Of a stretch of 64,000 bases of DNA, positions 37,710 to 39,452 are shown piece after piece. This stretch comes from Escherichia coli. Its GTDB lineage: Bacteria; Pseudomonadota; Gammaproteobacteria; Enterobacterales; Enterobacteriaceae. Where the stretch lies: assembly GCF_050320075.1 (NCBI RefSeq), contig NZ_CP190018.1; one strand, 5' to 3'. The number at the start of each line of letters is the position of its first letter. Within the stretch, counting starts at the first letter, position 1. A program made the position numbers and the translations under genes. A model generated the notes under the pieces. That model was not told the origin of the DNA. It did not search any database and worked only from the letters and a program-made list of their open reading frames with translations.

Positions 37710-37967
37710 ATGAAATACAACCTGACATTAAACAAACGAACATTCGAAATTACAGAAAGCGGCTACACACTGGCAAAACAGCTTGCTGATAGCAATTATG
37801 AGCTACCCGCGATTATCAGCTTTCAGGAGTTACCTCATAGTAAAGAACACACACAGCACTGGTTAAATCACCTGAGCCATTTTGGGGTAATTAAGTATGA
37901 GGCTGTGAATAGTCAGACGTTCCGTTTGCTTGAGATAAGCCCTTTCGAATTGTGGGTGGCGCTGTGA
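37710..37967 (+). CDS. hypothetical protein (85 aa)
   Basis: ORF in compact same-strand cluster. Confidence 0.35.
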   Translation: MKYNLTLNKRTFEITESGYTLAKQLADSNYELPAIISFQELPHSKEHTQHWLNHLSHFGVIKYEAVNSQTFRLLEISPFELWVAL

Positions 37968-38170
37968 CCATATTCGATAGCGAATTTTCACAAGAAACCT
38001 TTCTGCAATATTTACGGGAAAGAACGGGAATGATTCTGTTTGATTCTGAGTTTTCCGGTGTGGTAGGTGAGCAATTTTTATATGCTCTTCTCGATAGCCT
38101 AAGTAAACAAGGATTATTGCAGTATACCAAAACTCATATGAAAGCATTCAGAATCGACTCTGTAGCTTAA
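37952..38170 (+). CDS. hypothetical protein (72 aa)
   Basis: ORF overlapping previous gene end. Confidence 0.3.
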   Translation: MGGAVTIFDSEFSQETFLQYLRERTGMILFDSEFSGVVGEQFLYALLDSLSKQGLLQYTKTHMKAFRIDSVA

Positions 38171-38291
38171 AACAAACAACTATCAAACATCTTGAAGGGT
38201 GAAACAATGGAAAGCTTAATATTTTTCTTAGTATTTATGATCGCTTCCTTTTTTAACACTGCAACAAGAAAAACAAAACGAAGGGGAAGCA

Positions 38292-38672
38292 ATGAGCAAG
38301 AAAAAAGGCAAGAAAAACGTAATAACAACTATTGGCGAAGCATGTGATCAGTATGCGTTAAACAATCCTCGCAAATATAATTATGAGCATGATGCACAAC
38401 CAGGCGAGGAATTGATCTTTATACTTGAAGAACCAAGCCCAGAATTAACAGACGAAGAATTATCACTCATTCAAAGTATGGACGGTGTTTACTTTAATCC
38501 GCGCCCACGCAAAACAACGGTTATAGATTCCAGTCTTCTGAAAAGATGGCAGTGTTTGGGTTTTCAGGATATGCACCACTTTAGGGGGTATATGGCTCTT
38601 AACAGTCTGCAATATGCAGGGGTGAGAGAAACCGAATTACTTCTGCTTGATAAAATAAAAATCGACGATTAA
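38292..38672 (+). CDS. hypothetical protein (126 aa)
   Basis: ORF in compact cluster. Confidence 0.35.
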   Translation: MSKKKGKKNVITTIGEACDQYALNNPRKYNYEHDAQPGEELIFILEEPSPELTDEELSLIQSMDGVYFNPRPRKTTVIDSSLLKRWQCLGFQDMHHFRGYMALNSLQYAGVRETELLLLDKIKIDD

Positions 38673-38713
38673 CAGCGTTTGCTGAATATAACCCTTAACA
38701 AAAGGAAAATAAA

Positions 38714-38935
38714 ATGATTAACAAAGCAATTTTAGAGACAACCACTTTTCACGATCTTAAACTTCTTTCTGAATGCTTCATAAGCCTGATTGAACGTGCA
38801 CAGGAAGAAAACGATCTCGGTTTACTCGATGATATTATAGACAACATTGCAACTTATAAAATCCCGCTCACTATTGCTATGAAGAAAGCTCGTGAAGCAC
38901 AACAACAATTAGAACAATCAGAGGAAGTGGCATAA
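38714..38935 (+). CDS. hypothetical protein (73 aa)
   Basis: ORF; its stop overlaps the next start. Confidence 0.35.
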   Translation: MINKAILETTTFHDLKLLSECFISLIERAQEENDLGLLDDIIDNIATYKIPLTIAMKKAREAQQQLEQSEEVA

Positions 38936-39243
38936 TGAGCGAAGTACACAACGTAACTATTGAAATGATGGATCTGGTTATTGATTTACAGAAAGCAGTA
39001 AACGCGGCTCTGACTTTTCCAAGCGAGCTAACCATCACACAGGCGGTTATTAATCTGGAATCGACGCGGGAAGCACTGCAACTACTTATTGCAGCGTGCG
39101 AAGAGAGCGAAGGTGCACAGATTGAAGCTGATGACCTTTCTAATCTGATCATCGTCATTCATGACACCACTGAAATCATGAAAGAAGCGGTAGCAGATCT
39201 GCAACCCCTCATTAATGAATTAATCGATAAGGCTAACAACTAA
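38935..39243 (+). CDS. hypothetical protein (102 aa)
   Basis: Translationally coupled to flanking genes. Confidence 0.35.
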   Translation: MSEVHNVTIEMMDLVIDLQKAVNAALTFPSELTITQAVINLESTREALQLLIAACEESEGAQIEADDLSNLIIVIHDTTEIMKEAVADLQPLINELIDKANN

Positions 39244-39452
39244 TGTCAAAAACTAAACGTGTGCGCCTTCTGGCGCTCACAGAAGAAGGGAAAGCGGGTA
39301 ATTGTTTCACAGTAGGTAAAGTGTATACCGGCTTACTCGACACTTACACCCGCCTGATGCACGTAACCGATGATAACGGTAACGATCAAACAATCGTTTT
39401 AGATGGTAATTGCGTATTTGGTGAGTGGGAACTGACAACCGAAAAAAGTTGA
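39243..39452 (+). CDS. hypothetical protein (69 aa)
   Basis: Translationally coupled. Confidence 0.35.
   Translation: MSKTKRVRLLALTEEGKAGNCFTVGKVYTGLLDTYTRLMHVTDDNGNDQTIVLDGNCVFGEWELTTEKS

Follow-up and report, generated by a model that had tools for sequence, protein, structure and literature searches.

Six small genes crowd one strand at positions 37710-39452 of a 64,000-nucleotide stretch of Escherichia coli DNA (the window; contig NZ_CP190018.1 of assembly GCF_050320075.1), and they raise the question of what kind of element carries them and what their products might do for it. The original prediction likened the run to the early, host-takeover cassette of a phage. Part of this stands: the genes belong to what appears to be the early operon of a virus-related mobile element, look co-transcribed, are mosaic, and include one member, ORF6, with homologues in virulent phages. 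The carrier, however, is satellite-like rather than a phage, being without terminase, portal, sheath and lysis genes. While rating the whole somewhat below an even chance, we tentatively propose that these genes supply the effectors of a satellite family not yet described, whose members are ~13.7 kb long, integrate or live like plasmids, are spread across Enterobacteriaceae and would parasitize the virulent ~150-kb Stephanstirmvirinae. [quoted passage not shown] On this view, ORF1-ORF6 would encode novel proteins, new in fold as well, that take over the helper or act against phages. In the literature available to us, which was incomplete, we found no account of a satellite of Stephanstirmvirinae, Justusliebigvirus or Phapecoctavirus; an earlier description elsewhere is possible.

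The six cassette genes and their products

All six open reading frames (ORFs) lie on the plus strand: ORF1 (37710-37967; 85 aa), ORF2 (37964-38170; 68 aa, with a GTG start), ORF3 (38292-38672; 126 aa), ORF4 (38714-38935; 73 aa), ORF5 (38935-39243; 102 aa) and ORF6 (39243-39452; 69 aa). In the ORF list ORF2 begins at an upstream GTG, giving 72 aa at 37952-38170. RefSeq calls the same six, as hypothetical proteins, in an identical E. coli chromosome. Each was found full length and in frame across eight related loci that were fetched for comparison, and the six same-strand ORFs of the original prediction are real; in-frame conservation, the check set beforehand, was run and passed both in these eight relatives and in divergent elements. 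The ATGA-type overlaps ascribed to the run hold for three of the five junctions, ORF1/ORF2 sharing 4 nt (GTGA) and ORF4/ORF5 and ORF5/ORF6 1 nt each (TAATG), whereas ORF2-ORF3 and ORF3-ORF4 are spaced by 121 and 41 nt. A Shine-Dalgarno motif precedes most of the cassette starts.

The ratio of non-synonymous to synonymous substitution rates (dN/dS; Nei-Gojobori method) was 0.07-0.14 for ORF1, 0.07-0.18 for ORF3, 0.06-0.22 for ORF4, 0.12-0.28 for ORF5 and 0.14-0.27 for ORF6, similar to the range of 0.07-0.13 for the capsid gene of the element. These five ORFs are under purifying selection. Among the E. coli copies ORF2 is too invariant for such an estimate (at most 4 non-synonymous and 2 synonymous substitutions); it has full-length homologues at 71% and 40% identity, the latter in the same slot, where it again shares 4 nt with an ORF1-like gene. 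The six ORFs are true protein-coding genes.

The gene order of the cassette is constant in all relatives examined, whether E. coli copies or elements with a capsid protein of just 36-52% identity. At the same time, no other part of the element backbone is as variable and mosaic as the cassette, which would be expected of genes in conflict, and the cassette alleles reassort within the family. The cassette is kept with both of the replication modules found in these elements, namely a helix-turn-helix Rep or a DEAD-type helicase, and thus is not a Rep-specific accessory.

The gap between ORF2 and ORF3 probably holds a seventh cassette gene. This mini-ORF (38207-38347, plus strand; 46 aa) has a GAAGGG Shine-Dalgarno motif and codes for one transmembrane (TM) helix followed by a basic tail, its 3' end overlapping the start of ORF3 in another frame. 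It has no family match. Counterparts occur at the same position in other elements, with 34 and 23 aa in L016/L020 and L024, respectively, and 36 aa in L014, where the source annotation calls a hydrophobic product; those of the divergent relatives have a hydrophobic N-terminus, with a basic tail in two cases.

All six proteins are soluble and mostly acidic, and none has a domain in Pfam, NCBIfam or PADLOC above the curated cut-offs. In this respect the earlier view that they lack recognizable domains is borne out, except that ORF6 matches PHROG 27862, a family with no known function, over its full length (E 1.9e-14; residues 3-63 against positions 4-63 of the 65 in the profile). Weak matches to BrxA (ORF2, E 6e-4), ZorA and AATF (ORF5) and CdvB3 (ORF4) were rejected as lying far under the curated cut-offs or as coiled-coil noise. 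An exhaustive HMMER search with the six ORFs concatenated against 1.84 billion representative sequences returned only 32 relatives, all small and of about equal size; every one with a retrievable name is a "hypothetical protein", and wherever the source was examined, it was a member of the Enterobacteriaceae or an element of the same architecture. Beyond the phage homologues of ORF6, this search gave no homology outside the element family, and the six ORFs appear, by their sequence relationships, to be family-specific genes of these satellites. ORF3 represents the widest family in the cassette: a profile search with it gathered 118 clusters, all lacking both a Pfam domain and an informative name, and its members are present in at least ten enterobacterial genera, among them Escherichia, Klebsiella, Citrobacter, Enterobacter, Leclercia, Cronobacter, Kluyvera, Kosakonia and Salmonella. 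None of the ORFs has a sequence match in the PDB.

Structural hints come from an AlphaFold2 (AF2) model in which ORF1, ORF2, ORF6, ORF4 and ORF5 were folded, in this order, as one linker-joined chain; its mean predicted local distance difference test score (pLDDT) of 51 makes its features hints only. ORF1 was modeled as a β-hairpin, helix, strand, helix and wing (pLDDT 62-73), while ORF2 gave no defined fold in the model, and neither has a Pfam match. Aligned with hhalign to the HTH_36 segment of the Rep protein, they scored 25% and 22% probability, respectively, in both cases over the recognition helix and wing, and no relationship was seen between the two (probability 1%). ORF1 is possibly winged-helix-like. 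ORF3 has no known fold. ORF4, with a net charge of -7, was modeled as an acidic helical hairpin; a similar-looking 67-aa gene sits in its slot in three relatives (L007, L009 and L010), a likeness judged by eye that tblastn did not detect. The very acidic ORF5 (net charge -15, pI 4.05) forms a three-helix bundle in the model, and ORF6 a small five-stranded β-barrel (pLDDT 70-80). Foldseek retrieved SH3 domains for the ORF6 part and three-helix bundles for ORF5, with E of at least 0.13 at best, giving no significant fold match for the cassette proteins.

The carrier element and its relatives

The element begins at a 16-bp copy of the tRNA-Gly 3' end (32061-32076, plus strand), an attachment-site (att) remnant at the junction with an upstream P4-like island, and extends to a minus-strand gene for a tyrosine integrase (44280-45455). 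In five relatives a 22-bp direct repeat corresponding to the tRNA-Gly 3' end, TCGATTCCCTTCGCCCGCTCCA, brackets an element of 13.68 kb. Among the ORFs of at least 90 aa between 32061 and 45480, all of which were examined, none matches a terminase, portal, sheath, baseplate or lysis protein. The element combines three generic features of a phage satellite, namely an integrase with att repeats, an incomplete set of virion, packaging and lysis genes, and its own replication module (as judged by homology and assembly), and we read the ~13.7-kb unit as such on the strength of its gene content.

The cassette lies directly downstream of, and on the same strand as, a 221-aa Rep-like protein (37032-37697, plus strand) with an HTH_36 domain and matches to replication-initiator PHROGs. 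Further upstream are a 58-aa ORF without annotation (36908-37084, plus strand), which overlaps the Rep start, and the first gene of the operon, coding for a 60-aa basic protein (36702-36884, plus strand); a homologue of the latter with 42% identity directly precedes ORF1 in the helicase-type variants. A consensus scan placed a promoter-like site, TTGACA-17-TATTGT, before the 60-aa gene (36557-36585, plus strand), and no terminator-like site was seen on the plus strand from there to the first terminator at 39719. The cassette would accordingly form the distal, accessory part of the early (replication) operon.

Behind ORF6 comes a structured non-coding stretch of ~880 bp (39453-40330, plus strand), which begins with a near-consensus promoter-like site at 39472-39500 that reads TTGACT-17-TATAAT in most relatives. 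The ~800 nt that follow this promoter are 88-94% identical among relatives, a conservation above that of ORF5 and ORF6. The stretch includes a hairpin at 39574-39626 (13-bp stem, one compensatory pair) and terminator-like hairpins at 39719-39740 and 40251-40283, the second just ahead of the capsid operon, and it folds far better than shuffled sequences (z -4.0 and -6.6). The non-coding stretches match no Rfam family, and in an RNAalifold analysis of nine relatives the variation within 39453-40330 was too sparse for covariation. It may be a late-operon leader, a non-coding RNA or a packaging site. A strong promoter followed by two terminators before a late operon resembles antitermination control, and such a layout would call for an antiterminator or activator.

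The morphogenetic operon that follows (40331-44172, plus strand) codes for proteins of 71 and 123 aa, a major capsid protein (MCP) of the E family (PF03864; 40939-41967, plus strand), a 63-aa protein and a 613-aa tape-measure-like protein (42331-44172, plus strand). The 5' end of the integrase gene behind it is 15 codons shorter than in relatives, and no attR copy was found downstream of it, beside an IS1. On the other side of the early operon, the repeat-rich 2.3-kb region at 34350-36700 has no ORF of 66 aa or more; it contains many short direct and inverted repeats, among them a 23-nt tandem repeat (35552-35597) and 59/60-nt repeats (35258-35371), and its segment 35600-36700 is ~100% conserved in relatives with the same Rep. 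We regard it as a candidate origin or regulatory region. The left part of the element is a cargo segment (32525-34346) that differs from relative to relative and here holds an 85-aa ORF (plus strand), a YecR-like lipoprotein (minus strand) and a serine invertase/resolvase (33789-34346, minus strand).

Seventy of 5,426 complete E. coli genomes carry the cassette at 85-100% nucleotide identity, Shiga-toxin-producing O26 strains among them. The same architecture recurs at other chromosomal sites, with a DEAD-type helicase replacing Rep and an extra Dit-like tail gene, and again in far more divergent elements reached via ORF3 homologues, which show 36-52% identity in the capsid protein. Many of the carrier contigs measure 13.2-14.3 kb. 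Versions without the integrase gene (L016, L019 and L020, and also L017, L018 and L021-L023) make up contigs of ~13.3-13.7 kb that are circular permutations of one another, and the ends of three of them overlap, by 30 nt in L016 and L020 and by 23 nt in L019. Circular permutation and terminal overlaps together indicate that an integrase-less circular form exists, which suggests that these contigs are a plasmid-like or replicating circular form of the element. The cargo of these versions includes an Imm_superinfect protein, and PLSDB holds no plasmid with this backbone. One sister element (L024) codes at 3460-4458 for a 332-aa protein with a CapR domain (PF21817), a family whose name presumably goes back to the PLE protein by which the capsid genes of ICP1 are repressed.

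In the chromosome, the element is the second of two islands arranged in tandem behind glyU, a tRNA-Gly gene at 12857-12927, and is followed downstream by the IS1 and then by the ETT2 genes ygeH and ygeG. The chromosome of E. coli YZLc1-3 matches the region at 100% identity, and many others, O26:H11 strains included, are nearly identical to it. The first island is P4-like, with an integrase at 13095, an Icd-like gene, a DUF927 primase and four large genes without assignment. These last occupy its cargo slot at 23054-30715 as consecutive ORFs of 843, 686, 918 and 104 aa with no match in Pfam or PADLOC, and they are candidates for a defense system not yet characterized.

Affinities with Stephanstirmvirinae phages

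The Stephanstirmvirinae, the phi92/phAPEC8 group, are virulent myophages of ~150 kb. By sequence comparison, they are the nearest viral relatives of the structural genes, ORF6, the 58-aa ORF and the Rep DNA-binding domain alike. First, the MCP of the element is ~25% identical over its full length to the capsid proteins of Stephanstirmvirinae and of related Pseudomonas and Klebsiella phages, its nearest phage relatives; the MCP of L009, which represents a second structural type, had no tblastn match in phages. Second, the C-terminal two thirds of the 613-aa protein are 30% identical to Stephanstirmvirinae tape measure proteins (E 1e-42), and the Dit-like protein of sister elements (L009:13931-14608) is 51% identical to phi92 gp135. 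A shortened tape-measure homologue and a Dit-like tail-tube initiator suggest that the satellite alters the tail in addition to the capsid. Third, ORF6 is 44% identical to phAPEC8 gene 00234, a small early-region gene, and has tblastn matches in 71 phage records, mostly E. coli Stephanstirmvirinae; within this PHROG 27862/phAPEC8 00234 family, the satellite copy is set apart by ending the early operon of the satellite. Fourth, the 58-aa ORF at 36908-37084 shares 96% nucleotide and 89% amino acid identity with bas60_0101 of phage PaulScherrer and also matches a stretch of the Justusliebigvirus VEcB; it is probably a real gene overlooked by annotation.

The final link concerns the replication module. 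Gene 154 of muut, a virulent Justusliebigvirus, codes for a 332-aa protein (L011:2130-3128; MN850573.1, 81258-82256) made up of an HTH_36 domain, a second segment and a C-terminal MUG113/T5orf172 domain. The second segment shares 91% nucleotide and 75% amino acid identity with the DNA-binding region of the satellite Rep (37127-37387 in the window), and the nucleotide match was found in four phages (six records: muut, inny, Mt1B1_P17 and BI-EHEC). By analogy, this architecture is that of Odn from ICP1, a chimeric nuclease that uses the DNA-binding domain of the PLE RepA to cut the PLE origin (PMC8263062). The repeat-rich region upstream of the early operon, as the candidate origin, is the likely target of the nuclease-like phage protein. 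Taken together, these homologies point to an element that would be mobilized by, and a putative satellite of, Stephanstirmvirinae phages.

Possible roles of the cassette and comparison with known satellites

For the cassette itself, the explanation we favor, at just short of an even chance, is that it codes for small regulators of the late switch together with factors aimed at the helper phage, to redirect or inhibit it. We are led to it because the cassette is kept with either replication module, its alleles reassort, it occupies an early-operon position, and one member is common to the putative helper. The proteins would be small cytoplasmic factors made early, which act on the helper phage and also take part in the switch by which the satellite turns to its late operon. 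ORF1, and perhaps ORF2, would be DNA-binding proteins of a winged-helix-like type; ORF3, specific to the family, would have a basic N-terminus and a novel fold; ORF4 and ORF5 would be acidic helical protein-binders; and ORF6 a small β-barrel copied from, or held in common with, the helper. Several points weigh against this explanation. The cassette proteins returned no function-bearing match in the profile, PDB or fold searches. The assignment of ORF1 and ORF2 as winged-helix proteins is weak, as it derives from hhalign probabilities of 22-25% and a chain with a pLDDT of 51, and dependence on a helper is inferred from homology. The window copy, moreover, is probably immobile and fixed in the chromosome with its genes intact, because its integrase is 5'-truncated and no attR copy was found by the IS1. 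Finally, the integrase-less circular versions must express the replication operon without a helper, and hence expression of the cassette may be constitutive and its role the maintenance of the element itself.

One rival explanation, which we consider unlikely, is a self-maintenance module, in which ORF1/ORF2 would control copy number or transcription, the TM mini-peptide would be an addiction toxin, other products would be multimer or partition helpers, and nothing would act on the helper. The integrase-less circular versions of 13.3-13.7 kb do carry the same cassette, many contigs are element-sized, the cassette shares an operon with Rep or the helicase, and ORF1 and ORF2 are translationally coupled. 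In its form, a TM helix with a basic tail, the mini-ORF product has the look of small membrane toxins. Yet no match to partition, toxin-antitoxin or copy-control families was found; the cassette is conserved equally in integrated copies, which have no need for plasmid maintenance; and ORF6 is common to virulent phages, which have no plasmid stage.

It is rather improbable, in our estimate, that the cassette instead counters host defenses, an idea raised in the original prediction; in this case its proteins would inhibit immune systems such as restriction-modification or CRISPR, ORF5 acting perhaps as an acidic DNA mimic, and would thereby protect the satellite or its helper on entry into a new cell. 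Small, mosaic, early genes are the typical genomic style of anti-defense loci, and the cassette proteins are small, mosaic and early-expressed-looking, with acidic members in ORF5 (net charge -15, pI 4.05) and ORF4 (net charge -7). Against this, they have no sequence match to solved structures and no significant fold match, in a PDB that we take to hold most of the solved anti-CRISPR and anti-restriction proteins, and show no sequence or fold likeness to a characterized anti-defense inhibitor. Further, ORF3 and genes that are ORF4/ORF5-like in size and position are kept in all genera examined rather than varying with host defenses, and dN/dS is low.

More doubtful again is a role in virion assembly, with ORF4/ORF5 as a scaffold or capsid-size determinant and ORF3 or ORF6 as a packaging-specificity factor or connector. 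What speaks for it is that the element has its own MCP but no recognizable scaffold, protease or small terminase, that its size is held tightly at 13.3-13.8 kb, and that small acidic helical proteins are typical scaffolds. However, two terminators part the cassette from the morphogenetic operon, and it has its own upstream promoter; apart from a weak one for ORF6 (E 0.016), there are no matches to head or packaging PHROGs; and the alleles of ORF1-ORF4 reassort independently of the MCP type. Lastly, the truncated window integrase and the missing attR copy by the IS1 might betray a decaying prophage remnant whose ORFs have no current function, but we hold this to be very improbable and reject a defective prophage in view of purifying selection on five of the six ORFs, their intactness in all copies examined, an identical architecture conserved across genera and integration sites, and the circular autonomous versions.

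If the element is indeed a satellite that targets phages of the phi92/phAPEC8 type, the consequences reach beyond this locus. Detailed knowledge of satellites that exploit virulent phages comes mostly from the PLE of Vibrio cholerae and ICP1, and a counterpart in E. coli and other Enterobacteriaceae would be a tractable model for satellite-phage arms races. Phages of the phi92/phAPEC8 type are widely used in therapy collections, and such satellites could explain strain-specific resistance to them. The cassette would contribute six small proteins whose probable action is to bind machinery of the phage or the host and redirect it.

Among the known systems, P4-like satellites resemble the element in integrating at a tRNA, in their size of ~11-14 kb and in a variable cargo region; P4 can also exist as a plasmid. 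The present element differs in having no match, in Pfam or PHROG, to the alpha primase-helicase, Psu, Sid, Delta or Cnr, in coding for its own MCP, and in an apparent helper that is not P2-like. With the phage-inducible chromosomal islands that form capsids (cf-PICIs) it has in common its own MCP, presumably satellite-sized capsids, a size of 10-15 kb, and Enterobacteriaceae among the hosts. In published work, cf-PICIs are described as making every protein that capsid assembly and packaging require, whereas this element has only the MCP (PF03864) and its small neighbors, with no portal, protease or terminase match. It adds tape-measure-like and Dit-like tail genes, and its apparent partners are virulent jumbo-type myophages.

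PLE is set apart by recombinase and initiator, having a large serine recombinase and a RepA_N initiator in place of the tyrosine integrase at tRNA-Gly and the HTH_36 Rep or DEAD-type helicase of these elements, whose hosts are Enterobacteriaceae. Moreover, the present element encodes its own capsid and tape-measure-like proteins, while PLE is reported to remodel the ICP1 coat protein (PMC10945586). Those of the 32 relatives of the six ORFs whose source was examined gave no homology to PLE genes, in a search that included no direct comparison with PLE proteins. The likenesses to PLE are, nevertheless, several: both are compact islands in which most genes are small and have no known function, each with a replication initiator of its own and an apparent exploitation of a virulent myophage; the sister element L024 has a CapR-domain protein; and in both systems a phage gene—Odn in ICP1, gene 154 in muut—joins the DNA-binding domain of the satellite initiator to a T5orf172-type domain.

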